From a virus, in IMG/VR virus record IMGVR_UViG_3300020583_000014, positions 5,742 to 69,741 of that record: a stretch of DNA of 64,000 nucleotides; one strand, given 5' to 3'. The first letter of the stretch is position 1, and every line of letters starts with the position of its first letter. Made by a program: the position numbers and the translations under genes. Positions 16,562 through 46,023 of the stretch are shown piece after piece. A model generated the notes under the pieces. That model had not been told where the DNA came from and did no database searches. It saw nothing but the letters and a program-made list of their open reading frames with translations.

Positions 16562-19486
16562 TTAGTGGGTTACCACGTTAGGCTGCATCATAAGGATGGA
16601 GCCACACCCCACAGTTATCCAGTTATAATTAGTACCTGAGGAAAGACCTGTCACGGTTACAGTACGGTAGGTAAGTCCATCGTGTGCCCCCCCACTATCA
16701 GATTGGCTAACAACCGGCTGACCTGATGCATTCCTAACTATGCTGGAATATACTTTGATTGTACACGTGGACGTGGAAGGCGCATTGTACTGGACTGTTG
16801 CGGTTGTAGTCCCCGGCGTAATCAATAGACCATACATTATATTCCAGGGTGGTGTACCGGCAGCCACACCGGAGGTTGCTTGGTTGATTACGTCGATGTC
16901 CGCGCCGAGGTCTGTGCCGTCCGAACTGAGTTGAGTTGCCGATCCGTTTGCCGCGCTGTATGGACTGCTACTTGTGAGGTGACAATCCCCGCCAAACGTC
17001 CCGCAGGACGTGAACTTAATTACCGTGTTGTCTGCTGGCTTCTGAAAAGCATTGGCCAGAACATTCCCGCTTCCGAACGATCCTGGGCTGGGATACGTAC
17101 CCGTGGCCCCCTTCAACGCATTTGAAGACCAATAGCTGTTCTGGTAATAGGACGCAAGGGGCAAGCTTGCTTGGCCGACAAAATCCCCAACTGTGATGCT
17201 ATTCATAAACGTAGTCGTATCTGGAAGGGGTGACCATGGGCCGTTGGTGACAAAGCTAGCTGCCGCAATCATCGAGAAATTACCAGTATACGGCCAGCTA
17301 TCGGGTTGCCAGATAGTGTTGTGATTCTGGAGGTCACCAGTGTAGCCGTTCGAGGGACCATTCTCTATGGCTTGTCCGGGGCCGTCCGCTTCCATTTGCC
17401 AGGATTGGTTGCTGAAGCCACAAAGTGATGCAAAAGATGTACCGCACACGAGAGGGTTGGTGACCACCAGATTATTAACGATTGAGTTGCTACCAGGGGG
17501 AATCAGGCAGGGAACCGTCTGTGGGTTGCATTGTGTATCACGTGTAGCGGTCTTGAAAACATCAACCGCGTAGTTATTCATATATAGGATATGATCGTTA
17601 GAGAACCCAGGACCAGATCCGGTTTCCGCGCTGATTTTCCAGGCTTCTCCGGGTTGTCCGTAGGCGAACCCATACCGATACAGATTACCTATGTACGAAA
17701 ATAACCGCCCATTTTTTTGCTCAGTGTGGTTCTTGAAATCACCGGTCTGGGTAGGAAAAGAGGCGAGCGTGGTGGCCCAGACTCCGCTTGAATTACAACG
17801 AAAGTTGGTTGTCGTGGTGGTGTTGTTGAACCATTCGCCTCCCGAGTGGCCTGGGTCGGCGGTATCGTACAGACAGGCGGTTCCTGTGATTGTACTATCC
17901 ATCGCGACCGCGCCGGAATTGACGCGCCACGTCGGAGCTTTGTAGAAGTAGTTGCCGGCGAAAAGCTTGTTGGCGTTAGGGGGCGAATAAGGGGACCATG
18001 CGCCGCCGTAGAGCGTTACCTCCCCAGCCGCTTCTAGAAAGTTATTACTGATCGATGTAGGCCCCATTGAAGCCGTTCCCGAAATTGCCTGCGCCTCTCC
18101 GTCGTCTGCCCCCGTGATCCACGAGTCATGAATGTTTAGAAATTGAGAGTTGTCCACCAATGCCGTCACGATGGAGTGGTGACCTGAAGTATCGTGCGCG
18201 TAGCAGTGGTCTACTTCAAAGTGATGCGCCATTGCATTCTGGGATGTTTCGTTGCCATTTCCTAGGAATATAAGCGCATGGCCGAAACTACCAGAGTCGT
18301 TCTCTAGCAGTTCTAGGCCGCGCAATACCCAGTTATAAGGCAAATCCGCGCTCGCCATGGAGATCATCCCGGCGCCTGAACTTGTTAGAACTATTGGAGT
18401 GCCGCCAGGGGTAAGAGCCAACTGAAACGTTCCAGTGTTGCCGGAGCAGCCAGAGCAGGCCACAACGTAATAGATTTGATCCAGTTGCAACGGGGCTGGT
18501 AGAGTGCCGAAGGAATTGAAGCCAGCCGTGGAAAAGCTCACTCTCATGCCGTTGCTGACATTGCCGCCGTAACTGTGATACATAGTCAACGTGTTAGCGC
18601 TCACATTGACGTTGATCGGTACCCCAACATTAATATAGTTTCCAGTGGTGAAGCCTCCAGCCGCTTGCCACGTAGGTCCAGTCGGGTTGCACCAAAAGGA
18701 ATTTCCGGTGTTGGGGTTGTACGCTCCTGTGCCAGGACCAGGAGTCCAGCCAGTGCAAGAACCGGACTGATCTGAGCTTACGGTAGTGAAGCAGCCAGCG
18801 GTTGCGCAGGTACCCACCGACACAGGCGTGGTACAGGTCGAGTCTAACAATTGGAAGGTCGCATTGTTTGCGCCAGATGACCCGCTGTAACCAGTTACAC
18901 AGTAATGAGTCTTGAAGGTAAGCCCTGAGGGTGGGGTGAGTCCTACGATGTGGGCAGATCCCTCAGCCCATGGCTCAAACTCTACTTGGTAGCCGTTTCC
19001 CAAGCCGGTATAAAGTAGGGAACCGTTCAGCGTGACCGTGTTTCCGTTGAAGCTAACCACTGAATAATTGAAACTGTTGCCTTGGATCTCGGTACTCCAA
19101 ACAGTGGGCTTTGCCGCCAACCCCCCTCCCGCAAACGAGAGCTTACCGTAGATCGCCGAATCGTTCGCTGGATTGGTGCGGTAGCCGATAGGTGAGAACT
19201 GATTCCATGCGCTGGATTGTAAAAAGGTTAACTGTCCACAGTTCTGGAAATATGGGAGGTTTGCGTCACCCACCGCATAAAAAGCGTTGGCTACAATGAT
19301 GACAGTATCTCCACAAGCAAGGCCGTTTGCTGGATTAACCGCATGAGCAAGGGTAGCCCATGGGGCAGAGGCGGACGTGCCAGCGTTGGAGTCTGAGCCC
19401 GCTGGAGTGGCTGATGGGCTTGATACATACCAGATGGCTGCGTAACCATGAACCGCCGCAGCCAAAACTAATATCAGCTTCCTCAC
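16562..19486 (-). CDS. large beta-helix (pectin-lyase-like) protein with signal peptide; tailspike/depolymerase-like
   Basis: GTG start in GTGA overlap; MRKLILVLAAAVHGYA leader; YVS..GSDSNAGT...PWATL motif; beta-helix repeats; FN3-like C-terminus. Confidence 0.7.
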   Translation of the reverse strand: MRKLILVLAAAVHGYAAIWYVSSPSATPAGSDSNAGTSASAPWATLAHAVNPANGLACGDTVIIVANAFYAVGDANLPYFQNCGQLTFLQSSAWNQFSPIGYRTNPANDSAIYGKLSFAGGGLAAKPTVWSTEIQGNSFNYSVVSFNGNTVTLNGSLLYTGLGNGYQVEFEPWAEGSAHIVGLTPPSGLTFKTHYCVTGYSGSSGANNATFQLLDSTCTTPVSVGTCATAGCFTTVSSDQSGSCTGWTPGPGTGAYNPNTGNSFWCNPTGPTWQAAGGFTTGNYINVGVPINVNVSANTLTMYHSYGGNVSNGMRVSFSTAGFNSFGTLPAPLQLDQIYYVVACSGCSGNTGTFQLALTPGGTPIVLTSSGAGMISMASADLPYNWVLRGLELLENDSGSFGHALIFLGNGNETSQNAMAHHFEVDHCYAHDTSGHHSIVTALVDNSQFLNIHDSWITGADDGEAQAISGTASMGPTSISNNFLEAAGEVTLYGGAWSPYSPPNANKLFAGNYFYKAPTWRVNSGAVAMDSTITGTACLYDTADPGHSGGEWFNNTTTTTNFRCNSSGVWATTLASFPTQTGDFKNHTEQKNGRLFSYIGNLYRYGFAYGQPGEAWKISAETGSGPGFSNDHILYMNNYAVDVFKTATRDTQCNPQTVPCLIPPGSNSIVNNLVVTNPLVCGTSFASLCGFSNQSWQMEADGPGQAIENGPSNGYTGDLQNHNTIWQPDSWPYTGNFSMIAAASFVTNGPWSPLPDTTTFMNSITVGDFVGQASLPLASYYQNSYWSSNALKGATGTYPSPGSFGSGNVLANAFQKPADNTVIKFTSCGTFGGDCHLTSSSPYSAANGSATQLSSDGTDLGADIDVINQATSGVAAGTPPWNIMYGLLITPGTTTATVQYNAPSTSTCTIKVYSSIVRNASGQPVVSQSDSGGAHDGLTYRTVTVTGLSSGTNYNWITVGCGSILMMQPNVVTH

Positions 19487-20847
19487 TCCACCACCTGTAC
19501 AATCAATGTATTTGTGGAGGCATTTGCGGACACGGTACCGCAGGTAGTGGGCATCACTAATCCAGCTCCACTTCCTGTAGGAGCATTGCTTCCGGTAAAC
19601 GCGCCCTTTGCAGCCCCCGCTCGCGATTGCCATTGAGCTAAGTTCCCGTTTGAGCTGTCCGTATTGAATCCAGCAGCCCCCGCTCCAGTGTCTTCTCCAA
19701 GACTATAATAGAAAATACCTGCTGGAATCGTGATTGGCGTGATAGTTACGGTCACAAAGCCTGTACTTGCAAGTGAGAAATTGAGATCACTGCCTGAGAT
19801 TTTCGTACAGGTAGCGTCGAAAAAGGCAATCACTCCAAATTTGGCTGCCACTGCCGTGTCCACGTGTATTTGAATAGTAGTCACAGTCATAGGAACCGGA
19901 GTGAACTCCTGCCAAAAATAGCTCGTAGCGGCGGTAAAGGTTCCAGTAGTCCACAAGTTAGACCCATTTGGCTGATTCAGCAGCCACGGTAGGAATACGT
20001 TATTACCTGTGGTGGTAGGAGCACTTCCCCCACCGTTCGCCTGCTTCCATGTATTAGTGGCATCGCAAAAGTAGAGGTTCAACCCGGTCGTGTCAGTATA
20101 GAAGTCTCTCCCGGCAGTACAGTTTCCAGAGGGGGCTCCAGACCCAGTGAAGTAACGGGGCACCGTTACTGGATCAGTGGTCAACGTCTGCGCTCCTGAT
20201 ATTGCGCTTGGAGTGGACGCAATCCCTTGCCCCGCCACGATCACGTTACGTGAGTAAATGGAACGCTGATCCATCGCTTTAGTGATCGTGTCCCAGACGT
20301 TCGAGTGTATTGTTGTCGTCCAGAGTGGTACGGAATCAGCCGGGAATGCTGTGATTCCAGAAGCAATCGTGCACCCAGAACAGGTAAGCGTTTCTGCCCC
20401 ATTCATACCTACATATAGGATACTATTCAGTTCATACCAATAGACAGTATCATTTGAACTTGTACCACTAATAGTGACAGTAGCCCCTGAAGTCAGGGTC
20501 AAGACGACAACGGACCCTACCCTAATTTGGCACGGTAATGTTGCACTACAAAGGGCTCCAATTGCCTGCACTGTACCGGATGTATTAGAGACATTAAAGT
20601 CAATAAGGCTTGTAGCCGCTAGAGTAGCTGAGGTAGTACAAGTTGGGCAACTGATAACACCAGTCCCAGTAGTTGGACTGGGGGTTACCACCACAGGGGA
20701 TGTGGCAGTTATACTGACAGAACCTCCCCCACCAGAGCTTACACAATCCAAAAGACCTGTGATTGGATTTAGGGTTAACACAGAGCACTGCCCATATGCT
20801 GCCTGAGATAGCCCTAACATTAGAAAAACTAATATAATCTGTTTCAT
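19483..20847 (-). CDS. Thr/Ser/Gly-rich fibre-like protein with signal peptide
   Basis: Start MKQIILVFLMLGLSQAAYG-Q at 20847; GSGAPSGNCTAGRDFYTD..LYFC motif; paired Cys. Confidence 0.65.
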   Translation of the reverse strand: MKQIILVFLMLGLSQAAYGQCSVLTLNPITGLLDCVSSGGGGSVSITATSPVVVTPSPTTGTGVISCPTCTTSATLAATSLIDFNVSNTSGTVQAIGALCSATLPCQIRVGSVVVLTLTSGATVTISGTSSNDTVYWYELNSILYVGMNGAETLTCSGCTIASGITAFPADSVPLWTTTIHSNVWDTITKAMDQRSIYSRNVIVAGQGIASTPSAISGAQTLTTDPVTVPRYFTGSGAPSGNCTAGRDFYTDTTGLNLYFCDATNTWKQANGGGSAPTTTGNNVFLPWLLNQPNGSNLWTTGTFTAATSYFWQEFTPVPMTVTTIQIHVDTAVAAKFGVIAFFDATCTKISGSDLNFSLASTGFVTVTITPITIPAGIFYYSLGEDTGAGAAGFNTDSSNGNLAQWQSRAGAAKGAFTGSNAPTGSGAGLVMPTTCGTVSANASTNTLIVQVVE

Positions 20848-20884: not shown

Positions 20885-21493
20885 TTATTGATATGCAAGT
20901 GAGGCACGAGAGGAGCAGGCAAAACTACCCCCCGTAGAACTAGTAGTAAGGTTAGTACTACCTGCACCCCCGGCAGTGCCAGCCCAAGCCGATCCAATAA
21001 AGTTGTTGGACCCATCATAGAAAAGCTGCTGGATAGCCCATACAGGTTGATTAAGGCGTGGGCACATTGTTGTAACCACTGGGGTTCCTGTGACAGTACC
21101 AAATCCAGAGGAATTAACGGGGATAGTAAAGGCATTTGCTGAGGTAATAGTAGCGGCCCATACTCCGTTCGCCGGGCTCCATGCACCCGTAAACCCACTT
21201 ACCATTACTATAGGGGATATAACTAGGTTAGGCAAATTTGTATAATCACCAAGATTATGCGCTGTAGCTGTAAAACTGAGGGAACTTGCAGCGGTTGGGG
21301 AAGATACAACTATAGTGGTGAGCTTTGATCTAGATGCAGCTTTGCAAATATACTGAATTAATCCAGCATTATTGTAGGCTAAAGTCTGAATAGCAGTTGG
21401 TGGACTACCCGCAGACTGATTTACTGCTTGGCCATCTGGTATCTGTGCCCTTATAAGCGTAGCCGCCATTAACCCAAAAATAATCCTTTTCAT
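20885..21493 (-). CDS. beta-rich protein with signal peptide (FCCH-like domain)
   Basis: AAGGAG SD; MKRIIFGLMAATLIRA-Q; TATAHNL..VSG....NG....T.....FTI motif. Confidence 0.65.
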   Translation of the reverse strand: MKRIIFGLMAATLIRAQIPDGQAVNQSAGSPPTAIQTLAYNNAGLIQYICKAASRSKLTTIVVSSPTAASSLSFTATAHNLGDYTNLPNLVISPIVMVSGFTGAWSPANGVWAATITSANAFTIPVNSSGFGTVTGTPVVTTMCPRLNQPVWAIQQLFYDGSNNFIGSAWAGTAGGAGSTNLTTSSTGGSFACSSRASLAYQ

Positions 21494-21664: not shown

Positions 21665-23995
21665 CTAGATTGGGTTGCCCTTAGAATCAGTACCATTTAG
21701 CAAAGTTGCACCGTGACGTACTAAATATAATCCCCCTGGTAGTTTGGAGTTAGACTTCATATCAATCTTTTCCATTTTAGGTTTTGACCCTACCCAATGA
21801 AGCCTATGTACAGATGTCGGAGGGTCATCGCCTTTCTGGGTCATCATCTTAGAATTAATCTCCATTGAATCAGGAAATCCTTTAGCGGCCCAACTTTGTG
21901 CCAGCCGCAAATCCCGATAGTGCGTAATAAGGGCCTTTCTCTCTGTTGGCTTAGATTTCAATTCCTGTAGGCGTTTCTTTAATCCACCCAAAGTTCTCCT
22001 TTTGAAATCTACGAAGCTCTCGCCTGGGGATGTTGATTTCTCCCCCATTCCAGGAACCTTAACATTGGGCTGCTTAATTATATAATTGTGAATCTTATCC
22101 AAGACCTTCATGGTTGGCTGGCCCTCTATAGAGCCAAGAGCCCATGGCCTAAGGTCCTTAACCTTCTTAGATATAGGTACCCCTATAGCCTTAGATATAG
22201 CTTCTGCGGTTTGTACTGCCCTATGCAAATTACTAACCTCGATAGAGTCCACACCACCCTTAGCCTTAAACCTATCCCCTAGTTCTCTAGCCTGCTCTAA
22301 TCCTTTTTTGGATAATGGAATATCGAAACTCCCTCTGATTACGTCTTGTCCAGAGCGGGCCATATCAGGTATTGATTCCTTATCAGGTACAACTACTCCC
22401 CCTTTAGCTAGGGCAATTACCCCCCCCCCAGCCATTCCAGGTGGTGGGGTAGGAGGTACCCCTAACTTATCCCGTACTATCTTTCTAGCCCCCTCACTTA
22501 AATCCATCTTGTCTAAGCTATTAGAGAACTCGGACAACTTATCCGGCTGTGTCTTTAGATCATCAAGGGTAGCCCCCTGCTCTTTCAATGAATCCCCAAA
22601 GGTCTTGAGGAAGGAATTAGCCTCATGAATAATAGGCCCATTGTTGACTGCTGGGGGGGCAATAGTAGCTACCCGTCCTGGGGGTGTACCGGGAGCCAAA
22701 ATACCCTTTAATTGCTCTGCTGCACTGCCCCCATTAGGGCTTGTATTTAATACAGACCCATTTTGTGGGGTTACCGGGGGGACCTGTTTACGCTGTAGTA
22801 CATTACGCATAGCATTCCCTAAATCCTGGGGATTACCAGGAGGGGGGATAGCTGGGCCACGATTGGGAGGGGGCTGCATAGATGGTTCTGGTGGGGACTG
22901 CATCCTCTTCTGTAAAACTTGGGCAGCGGGGGCTACCCAAGGCTTTGGCATAGGCCCAGACCCATTCTGAGGGGGGGTAGGCATAGGTTGGGCCGGTACA
23001 TCATTTGGTACAACTGGTCCGGTTGCCCCTTCAGCCATAACACCTTGATTATACACCCCCCCTACCGGGGGTGCAGGTTTAACTGGAGGTTGAACTATTC
23101 CAGGAGGTACTCTGGTATTGACTGTAGATGAGCCCCCCATACTAGGGACTGAGGTAGCCTGTGTAGGTTGGGGGGGCAACCCGGTACCAGTAGGGGCTGG
23201 TTTAACTGGGGGAACAACAGGTCCCATGGAGGGTACATTAGAGGGAGGCTTGACTAACTTAGGATTAGTAGCTGGAATTGGACCCCCAGGACCCCCAGTA
23301 GATTGGGTTGGGGGCTTAGGTGGCATTATGCCGGGGGGGGTACCAGTCTGGTTAGGGGGGGGTGGGGTACCCTCAGGGGGTATTTCTCCCCCCTTAGCTA
23401 TATAATCTAGAAGATTAGCCGCCCCTTTCATTATGGCTACCTTAGGGTGTAAAGCCGCCTCCGCTGCTGCTTTAGCCGCTGATCCAGGGGTTATCCCAGC
23501 ATTCCTCAAGGCCCCAAAAGTCTTAGTGGCTCCATGCAGTAATACCCCTGATGCTACTGTACCAGCTAAAGCACCATAATCATCATTCCTTATATCTTGC
23601 TCTGCCTGCCTAATTAAAGGGCCTAATAGTGGGATATCCTCTACAGTACTAAGGGCCGCACGCCCATAATTTCCCTTATTAAATGCGTCTGATGCCTCTT
23701 TAGCCACATCTTTATTTGGGGTTACTATAGATTGGGCTGTACCTATAGGATGCTTCAATAAAGCGGAGGCCAAAGGTAAAGGATTAAGATTCTCCTCCAA
23801 CCTACCAAAGAAACCAGTTTTTGTAGCTGGAGCAAATAGGTGGTTTACTATCTCTGTATCTTTATACCCATCTCCCCTAGCAGCCTGAATCTTAGAGGCC
23901 ATATCGGGTTGGCTTTGGGATATAAAGTTTAGGATAGCATCGTCTCCATAACCATCAGCACGGGCTTCGGCTATCTTTTTAGATAAATCAGCCAT
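21665..23995 (-). CDS. putative internal/ejected virion protein with C-terminal circularly permuted histidine phosphatase
   Basis: N-terminal AR.DGY.D..I repeats, Pro-rich linker, then DIPLS..G..QA, RA.QTA, PGES, LITH and finally LYLVRHG at the C-terminus. Confidence 0.7.
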   Translation of the reverse strand: MADLSKKIAEARADGYGDDAILNFISQSQPDMASKIQAARGDGYKDTEIVNHLFAPATKTGFFGRLEENLNPLPLASALLKHPIGTAQSIVTPNKDVAKEASDAFNKGNYGRAALSTVEDIPLLGPLIRQAEQDIRNDDYGALAGTVASGVLLHGATKTFGALRNAGITPGSAAKAAAEAALHPKVAIMKGAANLLDYIAKGGEIPPEGTPPPPNQTGTPPGIMPPKPPTQSTGGPGGPIPATNPKLVKPPSNVPSMGPVVPPVKPAPTGTGLPPQPTQATSVPSMGGSSTVNTRVPPGIVQPPVKPAPPVGGVYNQGVMAEGATGPVVPNDVPAQPMPTPPQNGSGPMPKPWVAPAAQVLQKRMQSPPEPSMQPPPNRGPAIPPPGNPQDLGNAMRNVLQRKQVPPVTPQNGSVLNTSPNGGSAAEQLKGILAPGTPPGRVATIAPPAVNNGPIIHEANSFLKTFGDSLKEQGATLDDLKTQPDKLSEFSNSLDKMDLSEGARKIVRDKLGVPPTPPPGMAGGGVIALAKGGVVVPDKESIPDMARSGQDVIRGSFDIPLSKKGLEQARELGDRFKAKGGVDSIEVSNLHRAVQTAEAISKAIGVPISKKVKDLRPWALGSIEGQPTMKVLDKIHNYIIKQPNVKVPGMGEKSTSPGESFVDFKRRTLGGLKKRLQELKSKPTERKALITHYRDLRLAQSWAAKGFPDSMEINSKMMTQKGDDPPTSVHRLHWVGSKPKMEKIDMKSNSKLPGGLYLVRHGATLLNGTDSKGNPI
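22737..22759. repeat. 23-bp dispersed palindrome copy (in CDS)
   Basis: gggcttgtatttaatacagaccc, read as GSVLNTSP. Confidence 0.95.
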
Positions 23996-26043
23996 TATTG
24001 TAGGTGCTCGGAAAGTGGCTTCCTATGTTGAGCCCCTGGAGGAGCCACATTGGTGCTAAGAGGATTTATACCATACTTGTCAAATACAGCTTTAGCAGAT
24101 GGCATAATAGGGCTCCAGACATTATCGTCTGGATTAGTCTGCTTATATCTATCCTCATATGTTCTTAATTTAGCCCCAAATACTTTAAGCCCTTCCTGTG
24201 TAATTCCAAGGGCCTGTTGTGGGGAAGAAAAACCACCCTGAAGGGATGCTAAGACATGAGCAATTTCCGGGTCAGTGGCATTACCTTTTAGGGCTGTAGC
24301 AGCTTCACCAGCAAGGGCATTTAATACAAACTGTTGGTTAGTTGGCTTATCAGATCCAAACTTCTGAGCTATATAATTGTACACAGCATTCCCAGGTTGG
24401 AAGGAACCATTATTCATAGCTACTACTGCATCATGTAACTGCCCTAAATGTATAGAAGCAGTATTGAGAGCCCCAATATTCCTACCATCAGGCCCAGTAG
24501 TAAAAGCTTTCCTAATCTGAGCCCTTTGTTCATTAAATTGGGGGTCATATTTGAAGACAGCATCCCTTATTAAAGCACCAGACCCTCTTGTTCCAAGAGG
24601 GGGTATAGTTGCCCTGCCCTCTGAAATTGCTTTAACCTGTGCTGCTGTCCCTGGGGCCGACTGCTGTAGGGCATCTAGATATTCCTGCCCAGTCAAAGAG
24701 CCACCAACAGGGGCTGAATTTGCCCCAGACCCCCCACCCAATCCAGGAATACCAACTATATTTATATTAGGATTAGTCTTAGATAGGGTTATAGCCTTCC
24801 TAAGAATATCGGGGCTTAACTTAGGATCATCCGGATTACCACCAAGGGACCGTATGGCTGCTCTAAGTTCCCCAGTATACTCTTTAGACTGGTTAGTTTC
24901 TTTTGGGTCATTGGTTGCAATTATATTAGCTGGATTACTAGCATCTCTAATTACAGATCCAGGAGGAGTAACAAGGGGCTTAGGAGTAGCGGGGGATTTA
25001 ACATCCCCAGTAGTGGTGCTAAATATTCCTTGAGGTGAAGATGCAAACTCCCTCTGTTTAACACCTGTTGGATTAAGGGCAAACTGCTGGGCTGTGCTAT
25101 CATCCATCCCAGGAATCTCCATGGCCTGTAAATATCTCTCCCTAACTGTTAATTGAGGCTTGATAGCAGCCAATCTATTGGCATTAGCCTCTTCCCTCCA
25201 AGCTCTAGTGGTAGCTATCTGGTCACTTCGGAGCATAGCTGCTTCCCGCTCTGCCTCCTGCTGCGTTTCTTGATTAGCCAAGGCCCCCACATGCTGGGCC
25301 ACACTAAAGGCCCCTGCTGCCTGCCCCTCTCGGCTCAATCTATTTCCTATTTGGGGGAGCCCAATACTACTGAGGGTAATCCCAAGAGCTTCCTTCCATC
25401 CTGGAACCTTCTTATGTACAGCATCCACATAAGCCTGATTAGCTTCCGCTGCTGGTTTATCTAAGGGCAGATTACCTATTCTGGATTGAAACGGGGGGGT
25501 AGAGGGCTGACCGGCTACCGATTGTGACATTTCTCCAGGAATGGCTCCTCCTGGAGTAGTCTCCCCAGCTTCTAACTTATTGATATCAGAGGGTGGAGGA
25601 GTGCTTGTATTTAATACACGCCCTGTTTGAGGGGGTGGGGGGGCAGTGGAATCTGGGGGGATAGGCCCATTTTGAGCTAACAAAGCCTCTTCCTCAGGGG
25701 TTTTCTTCTTCTTCCTCATCCCCGGCATGGGATTATTAGGCATAGGAGCCGGAGGCATACCCTGAGATTGAGGCATCGGGGGCATACTGGGTGATGTCCC
25801 CATTGGTGGAACTGCACCCTGAGAGCTTACTGGGGATTGATCGTAGGGAGAGAGCGGGGTAGGATTCTGGGGGGGAGCGGGCATAGGGTCATAGGAAGCC
25901 ACAACCCCATCTTGGGCAGGTTTCAACCCACGTTTTTGGGCAGTAGCAAAGAAGACAGACTTACCCTTTTTGTCCCCGTACTCGGAGCGCATATTCTCTA
26001 GGACCTCGGCCCCATGCCCTTTAAAATAGGCCGGTATGGGCAC
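23995..26043 (-). CDS. putative internal/ejected virion protein
   Basis: Middle of three large low-complexity genes after the tail genes; N-terminal M..EYG.KKG.SVF.A motif, Pro/Met-rich segment, helical C-terminus. Confidence 0.55.
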   Translation of the reverse strand: MPIPAYFKGHGAEVLENMRSEYGDKKGKSVFFATAQKRGLKPAQDGVVASYDPMPAPPQNPTPLSPYDQSPVSSQGAVPPMGTSPSMPPMPQSQGMPPAPMPNNPMPGMRKKKKTPEEEALLAQNGPIPPDSTAPPPPQTGRVLNTSTPPPSDINKLEAGETTPGGAIPGEMSQSVAGQPSTPPFQSRIGNLPLDKPAAEANQAYVDAVHKKVPGWKEALGITLSSIGLPQIGNRLSREGQAAGAFSVAQHVGALANQETQQEAEREAAMLRSDQIATTRAWREEANANRLAAIKPQLTVRERYLQAMEIPGMDDSTAQQFALNPTGVKQREFASSPQGIFSTTTGDVKSPATPKPLVTPPGSVIRDASNPANIIATNDPKETNQSKEYTGELRAAIRSLGGNPDDPKLSPDILRKAITLSKTNPNINIVGIPGLGGGSGANSAPVGGSLTGQEYLDALQQSAPGTAAQVKAISEGRATIPPLGTRGSGALIRDAVFKYDPQFNEQRAQIRKAFTTGPDGRNIGALNTASIHLGQLHDAVVAMNNGSFQPGNAVYNYIAQKFGSDKPTNQQFVLNALAGEAATALKGNATDPEIAHVLASLQGGFSSPQQALGITQEGLKVFGAKLRTYEDRYKQTNPDDNVWSPIMPSAKAVFDKYGINPLSTNVAPPGAQHRKPLSEHLQ
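25601..25623. repeat. 23-bp dispersed palindrome copy (in CDS)
   Basis: gtgcttgtatttaatacacgccc, read as GRVLNTST. Confidence 0.9.
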
Positions 26044-29000
26044 TATATGTAACCCCCACCGTAATCCCCATACCCCTGGTAACGTTGCATAAGTTTCGGA
26101 ACCATAGCTGGGGTAGTCTTATTACTCTTACGCTTAGTTAAAGGAAGTACCAACTGCGGGACTTGCTGACCCAACTCCCGTATCTGGGGTCTTGACACAA
26201 GTTCGACTCTAGGGGGCCTCACCCCCGCAATCTTAGCCCCTGGAATTACACCCCCCCCCATAGAGCCCAGCCCTTTATGTAACTTATCCCTATTCCCAAA
26301 GTAATGAGCCCCCTCCCCAGCTACCATACCAGTGGCAGCCATAGGATAGCTTCCATAGGGTATATTCACTCCTCCCTTAGCTTCACCAAAGCCCCCATCT
26401 GGACCTTGGACATTAGTGCCACCCCCACCACCTGGGTAAGTTAGAACAGGGGGGTCACCTGTCCCCCAATCAGGTATTGGGTCAGGTGTAATAGTATTAG
26501 TTCCAGTCCCACTATTGTAGGGATTCTGTTGCCCTGGACTAATAGTGGTGTTCCCACTACCTGGGTTAAGGGTCGGATCACCAGGATGCCCAGGTATCCC
26601 ATCCCAAACCACGGTGGTATCACCTATACCGGCATTGGGATCTGGTACAGTTGTTGCCCCACTACCTGGGTCTGGGGTAACCCCATATGGATTAAAAGTA
26701 GAGTTAACATTGGGGGTAGTCCCAGTTGGATCAGGTGGAGGGGTACCTACAGTGGGAGCCGGTACATTTGGATTAGAGGGAGTAGCTGGAGGAAGGGAGA
26801 ACTGGGTTGGTGGGGCATTCACCCCCCCTACTGTTGGCACCGGGGGCTCTATTGTACTCAACCCGGGCGGAACAGTATTAGGTGTGGAGGACCCAGTACC
26901 CGGAGAAGCGGGGGGAGTACCCCCGCCATAACCGCCCGCTCCACCACCATATGTATTATATATATTGGTATTGGAGCTTGCATAACTAGGGGGGGAAGGC
27001 ACACCCTCAACCGGAGCCCCTTGTCCAAATAGAGCTTTCAACATTGCCAGATACGCGGGGTCCTGGGTCTGAGGTTGTGAACTGGAAAGGTAGGGGTCGT
27101 TATATGATTGATCCCCTGGAGCCTCACCGTACATATCCTTCTTAACGGGAGCTAGATCCACAATAAGTTCAGGGCCAGCCTCCCCGACTAGAGCCATATG
27201 CGGACCCTGGAAAGTATTACCCTTGGCAGTACCGGGAATCTTGGGTTGAGTTGTGGTTGTAGTCGTACCCCCTGTGGGATTTGTAGTCGTAGTCTGTGAC
27301 CCACCTATGTTAGTGGCTTGGGACACATCTCCCAATACATTCTGAGCTAGGTTAGTTGGGGTAGTGGGATCTCCAGGCTTAGTCCCATAATTAGCAATTG
27401 CTCCCGCTGTGGCAGCATTAGCCCCACTAATTTGAGTTCCATACGTCCCTATCTGCTGTTGGTTACCAACCTGCTCGTTCTGGGAAGCCTGAGCCTGCTG
27501 ATTCTGGAGATAAGTCCGGTACTCCTGCTGTTGAGCTAGAGTCTGGTTAGCAAAGTTTAGGTTAGTAGCATTATTTTGCCCGTACACATACTGCCCTGAG
27601 GCTTCCTGTGCCGCTTGGTTAGCCTCACTGGTAGTCTGCCGGTTGGTACCTAAGAGAGCGGCCCGATTGGATTGATTCTGCTCAGCAGTCTGGTTAGCCC
27701 CAAGGTTAGTGGTAGCCATGAACTGTTGGGCCTGTTGCTGCTGATTACCAAGGTACTGCTCAGCCCCCAACTGTGCGGCAGAAAGTGTATTCTGAGTATT
27801 GAGGGCAGAAGTCCCAAGATATTGCTGATTCTGTAATGCCTCAGCTTCCTGGGCTTGATTAGCAGCTACATTCTGTTGCCCTAAAGCCTCCTGAGTCCCA
27901 GTCCCCAACGCAGCATAACTCTGGGCGGCCCCCAAGCGGGTAGCTTCCTCAGTCTGAGTGGTGTTTAACTGAAGCTGCTTAGCCTGTACCTGGGCATTAG
28001 TCATTGCCTGGGCTTGCGCGGCAGCATTCGCCTCAGCCAATCTCGTTTGGGCATCAGCCAAAGCCAAAGGGTTGGTATTGCCCGCTGCGTTTGCCTGCTG
28101 TAACAGTTGGGCTTGGTTAGTTGCATTCTGATTACCAACTGTATAACCTGCCGCATTGAGAATAGCTTGCTGATCTTGTGGAGTTACAGTCTCGTTCTGG
28201 GCATACTGTTGGGATACATTAAGGGCCGTGGGGTCTACATAAGGATTGACATTAGCAGCCTCAGTGGCTAAAGCCCCCTGCACGCTTTGTTGGCCTGTAT
28301 TCAGAGCATTCCCAGTTAAGGCACTTTGGTTGGCTTCGTTTGTGGCCTGGGCCTGCTGGTACTGCCCAATATCAGTACCTATGTTACCAGCGGTAGTACC
28401 AAGAGCATTGTTGATATTACCCTCATCGGAGGTTAGTTGCTGTACAGGTTGGTAGGGGTTACCAGCTATAGCAGACTGCTCCCCAGGAGTAAGGTAATTC
28501 TGTCCTACCTGCTGATCGGTTAACTGAAGTGCTTGCAGCGCAGGCTCGTTAAGGATGGCATTCTGCTGCTCCTGAGTGTACCCCCCTTGACCGGAAGCTA
28601 TAGGAGCATACGCGGAGGTTAGCTGCTGCTGATCGTTAAGATTCTGCCCCGCGTTATAGTTTACATAGTTCTGCAACTGCTGATCTATACCTGCACCCTC
28701 ACCTAAGGCCAAGTTACGATTCTGCTGGGCCATTTCATTGATGGCGGGTCCGGTATAGGGGGTACCATACTGTCCAGCAAAGGGACCTAACGGCTGCGAA
28801 GGATTGTTAGTAGCCAGATAAGAATAAGGGTTACCATTACCTGGAGTAGTATTATATTGATAATTTGGGGCTCCTTGTGTAGATGGGTTAGAGGGGGCTT
28901 GGGTTGGGGCAGGGCCTTGTCCAGGACCCATTATACCAGCCGCATCAGTCCCAAGAGTACCCCCGCCAAAATCATAAGCGGGGTTAACACCCCCAGGATA

Positions 29001-31682: not shown

Positions 31683-31975
31683 AATATCTAATTATCAAGG
31701 GGCTCTTGGTTGTCAGTACGGCCCTAGATGCCCACTCCAGTTGGAAAGCTACTAAGGCTGGGGCTATTGAGGCTAATCCTATTCTCTCCTCCCATGGAAC
31801 TTATGCTACCAAAGGGGCTACCATTGAATTTGGGATAACCAGTGCCACCCTGCTGACAGAGTACTTGATTGAGAGAAACCATCCCAATATTAGAAATAAG
31901 ATTGCCATTGCGGAAGCTGTATCCGCTGGGGCTCACTTTGGTATCGCTGCTCATAACTATTCTCTAGCGAAATAA
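31679..31975 (+). CDS. membrane protein
   Basis: ATGA overlap; D..SS......G..EANP motif; hydrophobic helices. Confidence 0.6.
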   Translation: MKYLIIKGLLVVSTALDAHSSWKATKAGAIEANPILSSHGTYATKGATIEFGITSATLLTEYLIERNHPNIRNKIAIAEAVSAGAHFGIAAHNYSLAK

Positions 31976-32521: not shown

Positions 32522-33670
32522 CTAGCTTCCTACATTATCCACTATAAGCTGGGCTGTACCACTAGTAGTCGCTGTAGATTGCCATGCCGTAGTTATCCCA
32601 TCCTCTTCCAGGTAAGAAATAGTGGACCCAGAGATAGTGAATCCATTCCTAAGAGGACGGAGGGCATTCATGGTTGAGCGGGAAGCGGGTTGACCCACTG
32701 CTACTGTAGTTGCCGTCCAATCCCTAATAAGGGCCGAATCGGCTATAGCGTTTTTAGTGTTAGCATCAAATAAACCAGCAGTGGGTCCTGATATACCTTG
32801 GTCAGCAGAGAGGGAAGACTGGCCTACCCCAGTTAGGGACATCCCGGCTCCATTACCAGTAGCAGTCCCAAAAATACCAGATCCAGAAGTAGCCCCACCC
32901 ACACCAGATATTCCTCCTCCCGTTCCCCCTCCCACCCCAAGTACACCATTTCCAGACCCATTTCCGGCAGCGTTTATCCCGTTACCATTGGAGGCTCCAA
33001 CTAGGTGCATTCCATCCCCCCCACCTGCTGCATAGGCATAAATTCCAGAACCGGAAGTGGCCCCCCCCGCTGCCACTATTCCCTGTCCCGTACTACCCCC
33101 AGAGGATAACACCCCACTACCAGAGCCATTACCAGAGGCATTTATACCATTACCGTTAGATCCAGTAGAGGAAGCTATAATAGCATCCCCAGTTGAATTA
33201 ACTATATTCAATTGCCTTAAGGAGAGGGTAGCATTAGGGCCATTTGTGAAAGATCCATTTATCTTTACCACGTTAGCTGGTATTTCCGTACCCAAGGGGC
33301 TATATCCTAAATAGGCTATGTCTATAGGGGTAGACTGCATATTAGCGGCCCCCGAAAGCATAATTACACAGCCTAGATTTCCAGTAGAAAAAGCCGCATT
33401 AGGGGGGCAGAATTGATAATACCCCGGCATATGGGTAGCATCTATCTCAGCAAAACCACCAGAAGTATACACCCCCAGAGTCATAGTGGTAAGCGTTATG
33501 GCAGTTGGGGACAAGACAGTATCCGGCATAAAATAGGCAATTAACCCGGAGGTTGCAGATGTTAATCCCGTAAGCCCAGCCCCAGTTGTCACAGAAGAGT
33601 TACCAATAAAAATCTGTAATATGTTAGAAACTGATTGTTTCTGTATCTGCTTAAACTGTGGTGCTGCCAT
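32522..33670 (-). CDS. Gly-rich tail fibre-like protein
   Basis: EIDATHMPG.Y N-domain followed by G/S/A-rich repeats. Confidence 0.6.
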   Translation of the reverse strand: MAAPQFKQIQKQSVSNILQIFIGNSSVTTGAGLTGLTSATSGLIAYFMPDTVLSPTAITLTTMTLGVYTSGGFAEIDATHMPGYYQFCPPNAAFSTGNLGCVIMLSGAANMQSTPIDIAYLGYSPLGTEIPANVVKINGSFTNGPNATLSLRQLNIVNSTGDAIIASSTGSNGNGINASGNGSGSGVLSSGGSTGQGIVAAGGATSGSGIYAYAAGGGDGMHLVGASNGNGINAAGNGSGNGVLGVGGGTGGGISGVGGATSGSGIFGTATGNGAGMSLTGVGQSSLSADQGISGPTAGLFDANTKNAIADSALIRDWTATTVAVGQPASRSTMNALRPLRNGFTISGSTISYLEEDGITTAWQSTATTSGTAQLIVDNVGS

Positions 33671-33679
33671 ATGATATCT

Positions 33680-33702
33680 CGGTGTGTACTAAATACAGAC
33701 CC
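33680..33702. repeat. 23-bp dispersed palindrome copy (intergenic)
   Basis: cggtgtgtactaaatacagaccc. Confidence 0.9.
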
Positions 33703-33705
33703 TAT

Positions 33706-40890: not shown

Positions 40891-42249
40891 CTAGCTTGGA
40901 ACCTTTAACGAGTCAACGTAGAAGCCCGCGCCAGGGTCATAATCTACAAAATCGAACGCCTGCTCGATATGAAACTCACGGCTTGCGGCAATAGTCCCAT
41001 CCGAGTTACGAACCTCAAACACATTTCGTCCAGTCACAGTCTTGAACCGTACATCATGGGTCTGGGCTCGGCCCCAGATTGTGGGATTGATAAAGTCAAT
41101 ACGATCCTGGAACTGCCGCTTACTTACCATTGTGGGGATTCCGCACAGATAGAAAACATCTGTGTAGTCGATATTATTAGGCATCAAATCTGGCATCTTA
41201 CCCTGAGAATCACCGGGCTTCAGGAAGATATTACTGATATTGACACCAATCTGGAAGACTGCCTCACGCTGTTTCATATGGGCAATCCCGCGAAGACCAT
41301 TAGTGATAGTCTTATCACGGCGTTGCTGCAATTGATCCAGACCCTCAAGTACTAACCCAAAGGAGAAAGTAGCTCCAGAAGCGGAGATATGGGAAGCCAA
41401 AAGCTGCGGGATAGTGGACTTTAGCTTACCCAGATAGTAGTTAGACCCATTCGCGTCATTAGCATAGTATAGGCCGTGGCGGAAGGAATCACCAGTCAAA
41501 CCAGGACCGTTGGTCAGACCACCACCGGGCCATGTGGAACTGAAAGAGGTAAGAGTGGACGGACCATAAATATCCAAGTTAGGAAATGCAAGGATATCAG
41601 TGGCCGTAATCGAAGCAATAGACTGGCTGAGGGTAACAACCAATCCAATATAATCAATAGCGGTAATAAAGGTAGGGGCGGTACCAGAGCTAGGAGCCCG
41701 CTTAGTAGTCCCGCCCGCATTCCACACATCTACGCACATACCCTCACGGAGCCGGTTAACCCCGAGGGTATCAGTAGATCCTGCGAAAGTTATAGTTGTG
41801 GAAGTAGCAGCCGAAGATTGATTTGTGAGTATACCAGTTCCATCAGTATGAAGAGTGATATCATCGTCAATCTGGGATTCTGTCATCGCATCGGCAAGAG
41901 TCTTATTAAAGACGTTAACCACAGACTGGGCTGTGGTAGCTGATGTGTCCGACTCTTCATCCGTTACCCGATAGGACCGTACGGTGGTGATATACCCCGC
42001 CTGAAGGGAGGTAATCAACATGCCAGTACCGACTCCGAGGGAGCCCCCATCAGCAGTGTACTTATGGAAGTTACCGCCACGGAACTGTTGCAGGGGTATA
42101 CGGTAAAGATAACGCGAGATATCCACCTTATCGCCCCCAGCTTTCTTAATCATGCTGGAGACTTCGGATGAACTCTCAAAAATAGGTTGAAGTTTCTGAC
42201 GGACACGTTCAATCTGTGCCGCCACTACATCTGTTACGGAAACAGCCAT
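40891..42249 (-). CDS. major capsid protein (HK97 fold)
   Basis: 452 aa directly after scaffold; DGTG motif with insertion domain; C-terminal P.A.....L pattern. Confidence 0.75.
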   Translation of the reverse strand: MAVSVTDVVAAQIERVRQKLQPIFESSSEVSSMIKKAGGDKVDISRYLYRIPLQQFRGGNFHKYTADGGSLGVGTGMLITSLQAGYITTVRSYRVTDEESDTSATTAQSVVNVFNKTLADAMTESQIDDDITLHTDGTGILTNQSSAATSTTITFAGSTDTLGVNRLREGMCVDVWNAGGTTKRAPSSGTAPTFITAIDYIGLVVTLSQSIASITATDILAFPNLDIYGPSTLTSFSSTWPGGGLTNGPGLTGDSFRHGLYYANDANGSNYYLGKLKSTIPQLLASHISASGATFSFGLVLEGLDQLQQRRDKTITNGLRGIAHMKQREAVFQIGVNISNIFLKPGDSQGKMPDLMPNNIDYTDVFYLCGIPTMVSKRQFQDRIDFINPTIWGRAQTHDVRFKTVTGRNVFEVRNSDGTIAASREFHIEQAFDFVDYDPGAGFYVDSLKVPS

Positions 42250-43764: not shown

Positions 43765-44907
43765 CTATTGACCAACCCCCATCAGGCTACGGAGGGGTGC
43801 TGAGGTTAAAACCGCCCCACATGCATTTCCCCATGAGGATGATGCAAGAAATCCGCTAGGGCTGGATTGATTATTGTACTCGGCTGTGATCCAATCCACA
43901 GAGCGGTTAGTATTAGATACACGTAATTCATCAAGAGAACCTGGGAAATTGAAGAATGGATTACCTATACTAGACCCCAGCGCCCCAGCTACTACATGTA
44001 CACTATTATTCTGGGGAGCTTGGGAGTCAGTAGAAGTACAGAACTGTACACCGTCTAAGTATGCTGTCCAAGCTGTCCCATTCCAAGTGCCTACCAGATG
44101 GTGCCATGTACCCGTGGAGGTAGTTGTAGATGCGCTACAGCCATGGATGGAGCCTGTATTGGTATCCCAATATATATAATTGGTGGATGAGAAGTTATAA
44201 AGGCGTAACTCCCAACCGCGAGTATTACTCCCAAAGGAATACCCCTCATCGAACATAACATAATCATTTCCGGTGGGGGGCCAACTGGTAGCGTTAAACC
44301 ACAGTTCGGCGGTGATGTTTCCCGTGATCTGGAGAGACGATGCTAATCCGAAGTCAATATCTGCGTTAGAGCCATTGAATGCCGCTCCACCATCAATCTC
44401 CCCAGTAGTGGCAGTGGCATTAGCATTAGTTCCGTTATTTGCGTTAGCTGTCGAATCATTTGCCGTAAGTGAACTTCCATTAGGCAAATGCTGGACCATC
44501 GCATAGTTTGAATCCCAGGGGCTTGACTGTTGATCCGTTGTAACGCTCGCGTTACCATAAAATACATAAAACGTCGTATTGGATGAATGGCTAAGGGTCG
44601 GGATCTCTGCCCACCACTCCCCACCACTACCAGACGAGGCAGACCATATTACCCTTTCAAAATTATATGCTGAACCACTTACTGAACCTACTATAATGTC
44701 ATAACCACTAGAAGATTGAACCTTACCCCCATTACCCACTGTCTTTAAGCTAGTATCCCCAGTAAAGAGTACGGGGAAATTAGAGGAGTCAGAACTACCA
44801 ACTTGGGTGTGGTCAATAGTAAGAGATCCCCAATATCCATAACCCGCTGGGCAAGTTACTCCCCATAAAGGTAAGGTCACTAGAATAAGGGCGATTAACT
44901 TAATCAT
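43765..44907 (-). CDS. DUF2341 + LamG/concanavalin-A-like lectin protein with signal peptide
   Basis: TIDHT.V....NFPVL, YV.YGN, DST.N.N.GT, W.HLVGTW.G....Y.DG, G.LDE.RVSN..RS.DWI.AEYNNQ. Confidence 0.8.
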   Translation of the reverse strand: MIKLIALILVTLPLWGVTCPAGYGYWGSLTIDHTQVGSSDSSNFPVLFTGDTSLKTVGNGGKVQSSSGYDIIVGSVSGSAYNFERVIWSASSGSGGEWWAEIPTLSHSSNTTFYVFYGNASVTTDQQSSPWDSNYAMVQHLPNGSSLTANDSTANANNGTNANATATTGEIDGGAAFNGSNADIDFGLASSLQITGNITAELWFNATSWPPTGNDYVMFDEGYSFGSNTRGWELRLYNFSSTNYIYWDTNTGSIHGCSASTTTSTGTWHHLVGTWNGTAWTAYLDGVQFCTSTDSQAPQNNSVHVVAGALGSSIGNPFFNFPGSLDELRVSNTNRSVDWITAEYNNQSSPSGFLASSSWGNACGAVLTSAPLRSLMGVGQ

Positions 44908-45380
44908 TGCTGCACGTAAGTAAGTGCGCCGGATACTTGTCCCGTACTGGATGATGTAAAACAGATATCATCTGCCGAGCTAGTATCCCGTGCAATAGCG
45001 GATGCTCCATTACCCAAAACCCATCCACCATTCGCGGCAAGATTAGGACCATTTGCTGCTGCACCACTACTGGTATTTGTACCAAATAATGACCCATTAA
45101 TAGTGCCACAGTTTGTTCCAGTTCCAGAGAGCAGGTTAATATTCTGAGCCGTGGCGGATATAACAAAGATAGAACAGAGATACGTATGTTTAGAAGAAGT
45201 GCCAGAGATAATCTTGGTAGTGCTAGATGTAGCCTCAGAAACAGACAAGTAACTCTTTGTAGCGGTAGAACAGGGATCGGCAACAAGGGGGGTACCTGCA
45301 ATCTGGCTAGTATTAATAGGCTGTTGGGCTACCACAGCACTTATTAGTAATAGTCCAAGAACAATGGATAACCTACTCAT
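44904..45380 (-). CDS. small beta-sandwich protein with signal peptide
   Basis: MSRLSIVLGLLLISAVVA-QQ; four Cys. Confidence 0.65.
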   Translation of the reverse strand: MSRLSIVLGLLLISAVVAQQPINTSQIAGTPLVADPCSTATKSYLSVSEATSSTTKIISGTSSKHTYLCSIFVISATAQNINLLSGTGTNCGTINGSLFGTNTSSGAAANGPNLAANGGWVLGNGASAIARDTSSADDICFTSSSTGQVSGALTYVQQ

Positions 45381-46023
45381 AATAAGCTGACACGGAAACA
45401 GTTGTCGTACATCCAGTAGTGGTAGCCCCCGAATCAGTTGTTGCTCCCCCTATAGCTATACCCGTTGAGAAATTCTGGTATGCGAAAATAGCGGGGGGGA
45501 CCACTACCGTAACTCCAGCCTGGACGTAGATAGAGTCAATAACACTTGTACCAACCGTGGGTGTACTGGCATTATTGAAAAGCTGAACCCAACATGGGAT
45601 AGTGCCAGAGTTCCCAATTATCATACTATATAGGTTACCCGCACTGGCTTTTACATTAGCCGCAGCCGCTGTATTAGCATGAAACTTAGATAGGGCATAG
45701 GTTGATGTAGCTGAGGGAGTAAAGCTCCCACTAATTGGGATAGCCGTACCTCCAGAAACACCTTGTACACTAAGGACTCCACCACTGGGGGTGCCAGCAG
45801 TACCCTCACCATCTACATGCCCTACATTATTGGACCCGGCATTCAACCCTACTACACCAGTACCATCAGTAGGCAGTTCAACACGTAATCCAGTAGCCGC
45901 AGTACCATGCCCTAATGCAACCGCACCTCCACCATTGTAGGTCTGCAATTGGACGGGTTGTTGGGCTATAAGGATGGCTGTTATAACCATAATACTTACT
46001 ATGGTCTTCCACTTATTTCGCAT
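45373..46023 (-). CDS. Gly/Thr-rich protein with signal peptide
   Basis: Start at MRNKWKTIVSIMVITAILIA-QQ; C-terminal KASAG.LY......Q.FN...P beta domain. Confidence 0.65.
   Translation of the reverse strand: MRNKWKTIVSIMVITAILIAQQPVQLQTYNGGGAVALGHGTAATGLRVELPTDGTGVVGLNAGSNNVGHVDGEGTAGTPSGGVLSVQGVSGGTAIPISGSFTPSATSTYALSKFHANTAAAANVKASAGNLYSMIIGNSGTIPCWVQLFNNASTPTVGTSVIDSIYVQAGVTVVVPPAIFAYQNFSTGIAIGGATTDSGATTTGCTTTVSVSAYYE

Follow-up and report, generated by a model that had tools for sequence, protein, structure and literature searches.

Tailed phages are, by textbook accounts, assembled wholly in the cytoplasm, and their fibres normally carry no signal peptides. The DNA examined here raises the question of what six proteins with export-type leaders are doing within the structural operons of one phage. 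The window (the whole stretch analysed) takes in 64,000 bases of a virus record, IMGVR_UViG_3300020583_000014, that consists of one contig of 69,741 bases. Nearly all long open reading frames (ORFs) of the window lie on the minus strand. The phage is an uncultured soil phage of about 70 kb, and its host is probably a member of the Acidobacteriota. Judging from the protein sequences, we consider it highly probable that the six proteins, p1 to p6, are precursors of the Sec/signal peptidase I type that would be exported, cleaved and oxidatively folded in the periplasm. The first-pass annotation had proposed that such precursors fold outside the cytoplasm, and the proposal is backed by the conservation of the leaders in four homologue families, by a match of the junctions to those of the candidate host, by a glutamine cyclase in that host and by an enrichment of Cys in the mature parts. 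Very probably, the six proteins fold outside the compartment in which the rest of the particle is built. The six ORFs are as follows.

16562-19486, minus strand: p1, 974 residues; GTG start; leader codons 19439-19486 (MRKLILVLAAAVHGYA, then AIWY)
19483-20847, minus strand: p2, 454 residues; leader 20791-20847 (MKQIILVFLMLGLSQAAYG, then QCS); Cys-rich mosaic protein with 12 Cys
20885-21493, minus strand: p3, 202 residues; leader 21446-21493 (MKRIIFGLMAATLIRA, then QIP); small, beta-rich
43765-44907, minus strand: p4, 380 residues; leader about 44860-44907 (MIKLIALILVTLPLWG, then VTC); LamG/concanavalin-A-like lectin domain
44904-45380, minus strand: p5, 158 residues; leader 45327-45380 (ending ISAVVA, then QQP); small, with four Cys
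45373-46023, minus strand: p6, 216 residues; leader 45964-46023 (ending AILIA, then QQP); stalk of about 85 residues and a C-terminal jelly-roll knob

All six frames, which had been picked out for their basic-hydrophobic-cleavage leaders, are open on the minus strand over the full extent listed. Each has Lys or Arg near the start, a short uncharged hydrophobic run (some 7-15 residues) and small residues at positions -3 and -1. With a slash at the predicted cut, the junctions of p1 to p6 read GYA/A, AYG/Q, IRA/Q, LWG/V, VVA/Q and LIA/Q, and none has Pro at +1. The mature parts of p2, p3, p5 and p6 begin with Gln, as had been noticed. The cleavage site of p4 is the least certain of the six, and the crude leader test described below set the cut after A21. 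The lipobox of signal peptidase II, [LVI][ASTVI][GAS]C, is found at the leader end in none of the six (p4 reads WGVTC, with Thr at -1), and a twin-arginine motif precedes the hydrophobic region in none of them.

Leaders of this kind could result from wrongly chosen start codons, or the N-termini could be hydrophobic by chance. Such an artefact is favoured by p2, which has no clear ribosome-binding site upstream of its start, and by longer upstream frames that exist for p1, p2 and p6. Against it, the placement of the starts upstream of the hydrophobic segment is supported by a start/stop overlap or a ribosome-binding site for five of the six, all but p2. The stop of p2 overlaps the start of p1 (GTGA), the stop of p5 overlaps the start of p4 (ATGA), p6 and p5 overlap by 8 nucleotides, and purine-rich ribosome-binding sites lie upstream of p3 (AAGGAG) and p6 (GGGAGAG). 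The chance frequency was determined with a crude test of our own on N-termini, which marked 154 of 12,026 internal windows (1.3%) and 336 of 20,000 random N-termini (1.7%). When applied to the 54 proteins of the window the test marked nine, five of which belong to p1-p6, and p3 was missed solely for an Arg at -2. The probability of at least six of 54 at a rate of 1.7% is 3e-4, and that of six marks falling into at most two runs is 2e-4. With the start/stop coupling, the low background, the clustering and the recurrence of the leaders in hundreds of independent homologues, we regard an artefact as very improbable.

Beyond p1-p6, four ORFs of the window are positive in the crude test. Two of the four, both small, begin with leaders that resemble those of twin-arginine translocation, one at 50413-50736 on the minus strand (MNRRSFFLAPVGLIAG...), which overlaps the terminase stop, and one at 56650-56982 on the plus strand (MTRRSLLTLLGLSPALA...). 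The number of leaders was considered as a distinguishing mark of this phage and dropped, as the test finds 10 leader-like ORFs among 78 here and 5 among 61 in lambda, namely Lom, Bor and Rz (true envelope proteins), RexB (a membrane protein) and NinC (a false positive). The lambda count is comparable, and what is unusual is therefore the size and kind of the proteins and not how many leaders there are. The six proteins, which have no detectable similarity to one another, account for 2,384 of about 20,300 coded residues.

Conservation of the leaders was examined in homologues, where they recur in four families. The counts were made with a relaxed test that gives Gln a small bonus. The p6 family has 171 homologues in a collection of 5.8 billion proteins, of which 47 were aligned and 119 were listed for the leader test. 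A leader is present in 94 of the 119, with Gln at +1 in 79 of these 94; the 25 relatives that lack one are a few fragments and about 18 full-length proteins with a different, hydrophilic N-terminal domain (MADN...). For p2 there are 46 matches, 45 without the protein itself, and the leader is found in 37 of the 45 (Gln at +1 in 25 of the 37), the eight others being mostly cut sequences. Twelve of the 14 homologues of p3 have a leader, ending in Ala, Ser or Cys before Gln or in something similar, and nine of the 12 have Gln at +1. The p1 family has 638 relatives at E<=1e-3, with a leader in 108 of 149 among the matches listed, and in full-length relatives the leader is followed by ATYYV..GSDSN.G..PW.T.

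The leader-bearing genes also keep company with one another. Among close full-length copies of p6, a leader followed by Gln occurs in 9 of 9, and the next ORF is again leader-bearing in 7 of 9. In IMG/VR, p1-like genes end runs of three or four consecutive leader-bearing ORFs (L124-L126). A leader-bearing gene 35% identical to p4 adjoins the p1-like gene in L125 and a p2-like ORF adjoins it in L126, which indicates that both clusters of the window belong to one class. The scan that located these p1 loci used an alignment of the 12 closest sequences; with p1, p6 or the terminase alone as query, scans of IMG/VR brought up no relative, and family alignments were needed. No match to p1, p2 or p6 was found in 50,697 GenBank phage records.

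A hydrophobic N-terminus alone cannot tell a signal peptide from a signal anchor, and lambda Rz and RexB are also positive in the crude test. The N-termini of p1 to p6 might accordingly stay uncleaved, as retained membrane anchors or as tethers for assembly at the inner membrane. The pattern of conservation argues against this. In the 47 aligned p6 sequences, A20, Q21, Q22, P23, C144 and C205 are invariant or nearly so and the leader varies freely. Two further distinct copies of p5 (L001 and L005; 72% and 44% identical) have different leaders, and A18-Q19-Q20-P21 and all four Cys (37, 69, 91 and 140) are invariant. A leader that drifts before a fixed junction and a fixed mature N-terminus is what a cleaved signal peptide should look like. 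What is conserved is thus the junction (A/QQP) and not the hydrophobic stretch, which is short in all six proteins and has small residues after it at -3 and -1. Cleaved outer-membrane receptors of the candidate host have the junction that the phage proteins copy. We consider uncleaved anchors improbable.

The candidate host was reached through the p6 family, whose best match in genome collections is a 59-kb contig (L001) in a Bryobacterales bin (G001), with a weaker match in an Acidobacteriaceae bin. We infer that G001 represents the kind of host. Leaders of TonB receptors from this genome were examined at 30 loci (L054-L083) by a fixed rule that takes the first polar residue ending the uncharged run. 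A leader was found in 27, and it ends at Gln in 19 of the 27; by eye, a small residue followed by Gln is seen in 27 of 29 recognisable leaders. In other Acidobacteriota genomes (28 receptor loci, L089-L117, one locus from an unpublished genome having been excluded), Gln was found in 11 of 27 by the fixed rule. An automatic choice of the cleavage site that is blind to Gln was rejected as unreliable, since it gave Gln in 14 of 28 receptors versus the 27 of 29 seen by eye. G001 also encodes a glutamine cyclotransferase (L088; Glu_cyclase_2, PF05096, E 1e-97). The junctions of p2, p3, p5 and p6 match those of the candidate host's own exported proteins, and Gln at +1 is kept in the homologues of four of the six proteins.

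In the portions of PMC5837995 and PMC10653852 consulted, this preference for Gln after the leader (the Q-rule) is described as Bacteroidetes-specific. The word 'acidobacteria' occurs 0 times in PMC5837995, and a literature search on Acidobacteria with pyroglutamate and signal peptide found nothing relevant. The receptor leaders suggest that the rule holds in at least some Acidobacteriota as well. A Bacteroidota host, the first guess from the Gln rule, was dropped on the titles of the genome bins, the receptor test and the taxa of the Atlas matches. A C-terminal sorting domain of the type IX secretion system, also considered from the Gln rule, gave no Pfam match. The Tunturi isolates of Acidobacteriota phages do not include this phage genome, as far as the part of PMC11924767 consulted goes.

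Distant relatives of p1 and p2 are found on long bacterial contigs, which would be expected if the six were bacterial genes on a chimeric contig or on the flanks of a prophage. The p6 profile was found in 2 of the 301 Acidobacteriota genomes sampled, one being the bin with L001 and the other a weak match, as against 49 loci in IMG/VR, and the p6 family is therefore phage-borne. For p1, matches are partial and weak and occur in just 7 of the 151 genomes examined. The phage genome forms a single virus record of 69,741 bp, and the six genes lie inside structural operons, on the same strand, and are translationally coupled to one another. A bacterial origin of this kind is hardly credible.

The composition of the mature proteins was examined next to that of the other proteins of the window. 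The six mature parts have 46 Cys in 2,279 residues (2.0%), compared with 1.05% in the other 48 proteins. The three largest leaderless ORFs of the tail region (776, 682 and 1,431 residues; 21665-30338, minus strand), with 2,889 residues between them, have no Cys, and the capsid protein has 0.44%. From p1 to p6 the counts are 21, 12, 3, 4, 4 and 2. The earlier description of the Cys as paired stands for p6 and p5, in which the Cys are invariant, and sits badly with the odd counts of p1 (21) and p3 (3). A low charge (7% of D+E+K+R) is common to the six and to the leaderless fibre-like ORFs and therefore does not separate the two classes.

The first-pass annotation had also called the six proteins structural in type, which is fair for p6, with its phage-typical jelly roll, and for p1, for which there is a beta-helix lead. 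For p1, p2, p3, p5 and p6, no family in PHROG, Pfam or NCBIfam reaches its curated cut-off. The AlphaFold2 model of p6 has a helix at residues 4-20, a region of low confidence at 21-105 and a beta sandwich at 107-216 with a predicted local distance difference test (pLDDT) value of about 90. Matches of this knob to folds in the PDB are weak and generic, with E of at least 4e-3 (Ena, PirA, phage cement proteins, C1q and carbohydrate-binding modules). A search of the predicted viral structures in BFVD gave 41 matches at E<=1e-3, every one an uncharacterised protein of a phage; the strongest has E 2e-8 and 30% identity, and one carries the name tail fiber. In other viral contigs a knob of the p6 type ends leaderless ORFs of 692-1,245 residues, for example in L020 (1,184 residues), L023 (1,245) and L027 (1,178), with the knob at about 10001-10340 in each. 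The same tip is thus used with and without an export signal, and the p6 knob is a fibre-tip type domain of phages with a phage-typical jelly roll.

A three-copy model of p6 residues 100-216 scored 0.65, versus 0.00 for the best control, and the runs agree in at least 93% of contacts with a partner pLDDT of 89 or more. In the calibration, which used two copies and other alignments where the p6 run used three copies and its own alignment, 20 of 30 proteins whose structures are pairs of one chain attained this mark, as did 1 of 23 whose structures are single chains. The modelling supports self-binding of the p6 knob as a putative trimer. The repeat of the p6 stalk (...GHGTAA.ALRVELPTDGTG...) is common to many other proteins, with and without leaders, and the conserved mature N-terminus (QQPVQLQT...) might conceivably serve as a particle-binding domain.

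p6 and p5 travel with a third gene that has no leader.

46159-46731, minus strand: leaderless partner, 190 residues

By tblastn the partner is present in 8 of 53 related loci, always just upstream of the p6-like gene, and only p6 (41 loci), p5 (4) and the partner (8) recur in these loci; the rest of the phage does not. The model of the partner is disordered at residues 1-95 and has a beta sandwich at 100-190, and its best PDB fold match, 7a02 (E 5e-3), is also that of p6. A paralogous relationship of partner and p6 was dropped, as profile comparison gave a probability of 4%. The PHROGs returned nothing for the partner or for nine relatives from the families. The cassette of p6, p5 and partner changes its place among phages. 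In the window it is situated after the portal-sized ORF and ahead of the scaffold-like ORF, and in L005 between terminase and portal. In L007 the cassette is found downstream of a capsid gene with an endolysin next in line, and in L011 too an endolysin comes after it.

p1 is a large, beta-helix-like protein whose C-terminal part resembles fibronectin type III domains. Its Atlas neighbours are clusters of right-handed beta-helices, mostly from Acidobacteriota (0.89, 172-176 shared features), and Atlas structure rows give template modelling (TM) scores of 0.45-0.48 by query; these neighbours are a lead only. p1 looks like a beta-helix enzyme. It has no match above the curated cut-offs in Pfam, PHROG or NCBIfam and no PDB sequence match of note, its weak matches being Pur_ac_phosph_N (E 0.034, 15.2 bits against a cut-off of 30) and a xylosidase (E 0.61). 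Neither p1, nor ten of its homologues, nor the family profile has a sequence match to Beta_helix, Pel9A-like or DUF1565. In p4, residues 179-340 match Pfam Laminin_G_3 (PF13385; E 3e-18, 66.8 bits against a cut-off of 27.6).

The two clusters of leader-bearing genes lie among late genes. The p3-p2-p1 cluster comes after the three large leaderless ORFs, with a lysis-like block beyond it, and the p6-p5-p4 cluster lies between a portal-sized ORF and a scaffold-like ORF with the major capsid protein. Promoter-like sites in the two clusters number 3 versus 5.9 expected from shuffled sequence and 9 versus 5.7 (the sigma-70 consensus used may not fit the host), and terminator-like sites 0 versus 2.9 and 1 versus 4.3. 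These sites are not above the shuffled expectation, and both clusters are probably read with the late operons.

Our favoured reading is that the six late proteins are made as Sec precursors, each with the host-type leader that its sequence shows, that SecYEG would export them to the periplasm of the diderm Acidobacteriota host and that signal peptidase I would cut the leaders. The new N-terminal Gln of p2, p3, p5 and p6 would then be cyclised by the host glutamine cyclase, disulfides would form in the periplasm and the proteins would wait there until lysis. The products would amount to gear for recognising and cutting glycans: a trimeric stalked knob (p6), a Cys-rich partner (p5), a LamG lectin (p4), a beta-helix enzyme (p1) and two smaller proteins (p2 and p3). 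At lysis at least p1-p3 and p6 would meet the particles built in the cytoplasm and stay on them as appendages.

This last step, docking on the particle at lysis, is the one that has to be weighed most carefully, and we regard it as plausible at somewhat short of an even chance. The other course is that the proteins are exported and never become parts of the virion, acting as accessory, moron-like late proteins on the envelope of the infected cell or as free extracellular factors. Such proteins could possibly cut or bind capsule or exopolysaccharide so that progeny escape, mask receptors against superinfection, or serve polysaccharide feeding. We hold this to be a serious contender, if a rather less favoured one. 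Docking is put slightly ahead because of the precedent of Cellulophaga phage phi18:3, the fibre-tip knob of p6 and the late-operon setting. A free or envelope role comes next because of the mobility of the cassette, the lack of a particle-binding domain in p1 and the leaderless fibre candidates.

Several observations weigh against docking or against the picture of which it is part. Mobility of the cassette suits accessory genes better than fixed virion parts, and its variable insertion point among phages is what is expected of morons. No recognisable particle-binding domain is present in p1 between the leader and the conserved family core. Leaderless, nearly Cys-free fibre-like candidates lie elsewhere in the genome, at 31964-35643, and the phage may not need p1-p3 for adsorption. 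The phi18:3 proteins gp085-087 have no sequence similarity to p1-p6 (best E 0.29), and their detection by mass spectrometry, known here from the annotation of the record, could reflect co-purifying envelope material. The host assignment rests on genome bins and on the composition of relatives, and weak partial matches to the p6 family occur also in a Chloroflexi bin and an Acidovorax bin.

An accessory role would be further consistent with the LamG domain of p4, which is of a kind common in secreted bacterial proteins, with the bacterial beta-helix clusters that neighbour p1 in the Atlas (a lead only), with the exported phage proteins Lom and Bor in late or tail regions, both caught by the crude test, and with the Q-rule proteins of Porphyromonas gingivalis phages, which the consulted part of PMC10367356 proposes to modify the outer membrane. 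It is less easily reconciled with the amount of protein, since the 2,384 residues of the six are far above the 456 of lambda Lom, Bor and Rz together, with the absence of promoters or terminators of their own above chance, with the fibre-tip type of the p6 knob and with phi18:3, which points to virion association. Since lysis would release a cytoplasmic enzyme too, export would need another reason.

The remaining genes of the window place the two clusters in the phage genome. Those on which the account above relies are the following.

50733-52772, minus strand: terminase large subunit (PHROG 2, E 1.8e-27)
40891-42249, minus strand: major capsid protein (Atlas feature search, score 0.99, 227 shared features)
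14565-16530, minus strand: lysis-like block directly downstream of p1, with Lipase_3 and small hydrophobic ORFs
15226-15897, minus strand: Lipase_3 protein (class 3 lipase, GHSLG; Pfam E 2.9e-8)

The terminase is at most 27% identical to those of the 15 phage records listed from a tblastn search against 652 records, and all 652 are below 60%. The first Atlas matches of the capsid ORF are viral clusters, with SU10_MCP on 15% of the members of one cluster, and the ORF has no Pfam or PHROG match. An ORF of 834 residues at 46782-49286 (minus strand) has the size and place of a portal. PDB sequence searches with the capsid, scaffold-like and portal-sized ORFs were empty or gave chance-level matches, and the portal identity could not be confirmed for that reason. 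The majority of the structural ORFs have no family match in PHROGs or Pfam, and the phage is very divergent. From its gene content we infer a lysis role for the block at 14565-16530, which includes two small ORFs with hydrophobic segments at 14565-15229. The lipase adjoins these small membrane proteins and is possibly an envelope-lipid esterase acting at lysis.

Among the tail genes, the 776-residue ORF within 21665-30338 (minus strand) has a histidine-phosphatase domain at residues 550-708. The N-terminus of a 227-residue ORF in L007 (7506-8189), together with a 33% tblastn match of the 776-residue ORF in that locus, indicates that this domain may exist there as a separate copy. A basic ORF of 229 residues (30325-31014, minus strand) lies between tail genes and has, by eye, an HNH-like C-terminal motif and no family match; its N-terminus is also leader-like in the crude test. 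Replication genes, namely a family A polymerase, a helicase and an ERCC4 nuclease, are found on the left-hand side of the window. Of these, the family A DNA polymerase is divided between two ORFs (4166-5506 and 5922-7298, minus strand), with the polymerase domain as an ORF of its own, the 3'-5' exonuclease fused to a domain of the uracil-DNA-glycosylase superfamily and a 144-residue ORF between the exonuclease and polymerase ORFs. A short adenylosuccinate-synthetase-like protein at 488-1636 (minus strand; Pfam E 5e-38) is far under the NCBIfam cut-offs for PurA (106 versus 402 bits) and weak for PurZ (41.5 versus 300 bits), and may point to a modified-adenine pathway. The plus strand carries genes for tRNA-Met(CAT) and tRNA-Leu(TAA) at 3352-3426 and 3885-3967. 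A protein with a 3'-phosphoadenosine-5'-phosphosulfate reductase domain is encoded at 54129-54926 (minus strand).

The leaders bear on how such phages may be built and what they may release. About a tenth of the coding capacity of this phage is given to proteins of host-recognition type with a host export signal, and the design of a leader on a fibre-type protein recurs in hundreds of uncultured relatives. If the parts join the particle, the adsorption gear would be oxidatively folded and N-terminally capped for acid soil, and one assembly step would take place outside the cytoplasm. Should they remain free, lectins and glycan-cutting enzymes would be secreted by soil phages on a scale that soil carbon models leave out. 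In both cases the presence of a leader on a fibre gene is a usable mark for host prediction, and the Q-rule, published as Bacteroidetes-specific, is suggested to extend to some Acidobacteriota. We advance more tentatively, as a speculative idea, that tailed phages of diderm soil and water bacteria (Acidobacteriota and Bacteroidota) run a second, extracytoplasmic branch of virion assembly, in which Sec-exported tailspikes, fibre knobs and head add-ons with pyroglutamate caps and disulfides would dock at lysis. If this were true, the cassette of p6, p5 and partner would be a swappable appendage kit matured in the periplasm.

Our literature search, which mostly covered sources outside subscription journals, found no paper on periplasmic maturation of tailed-phage appendages, and the known systems nearest to the present one are compared here. 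One is Cellulophaga phage phi18:3 (Pachyviridae; NC_021794), whose record labels each of gp085-087 a virion, structural or tail protein and cites 'experimental MS/MS proteomics analysis' (tandem mass spectrometry) as the basis. These three genes are consecutive, large, late and a few genes upstream of the endolysin, each product has a basic-hydrophobic leader that ends in a small residue followed by Gln, and the host, likewise a diderm, applies the Gln rule to its exported proteins. This host differs in belonging to the Bacteroidota, and gp085-087 are poor in Cys (0, 1 and 3). The proteomics paper is reportedly that of Holmfeldt et al. 2013.

Phages of P. gingivalis have five Q-rule signal-peptide genes, of unknown function and proposed, in the consulted part of PMC10367356, to modify the outer membrane. 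They resemble the present genes in that phage genes copy the signal peptidase I junction of the host, with Gln at +1, to go by the sections of PMC10367356, PMC5837995 and PMC10653852 consulted. The proteins described here differ in being of large fibre, lectin and beta-helix types encoded in structural operons, and in a host that is likely one of the Acidobacteriota.

At the level of fold, the p6 knob and the C-terminal domain of its partner have a fold class in common with Ena endospore subunits (7a02, 8pdz), phage cement proteins (7dou, 3j4u, 7eel) and C1q, and the PDB matches are weak and generic (E 4e-3 to 6e-2, TM 0.3-0.5) so that no membership is claimed. P22 gp9 and T7 gp17 lack a leader, bind the particle through an N-terminal domain and fold in the cytoplasm. 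The present proteins recall such podovirus tailspikes and fibres in the beta-helix lead of p1 at the end of the tail module and in the mosaic end-swapping of the p6 family that is typical of fibres, and p1 differs from them in running from the leader straight into the conserved core. Exported accessory proteins are known from phage late regions, as with Llp of T5 and Cor of T1 and phi80. In lambda, Lom and Bor are likewise signal-peptide products of genes among tail or late genes, lom lying directly after the tail gene J and its leader being marked by the crude test. Lom (206 residues) and Bor (97 residues) are single, small proteins with known envelope roles, whereas the phage described here has six proteins of 158-974 residues, in two coupled clusters, with fibre-tip and enzyme-like folds.

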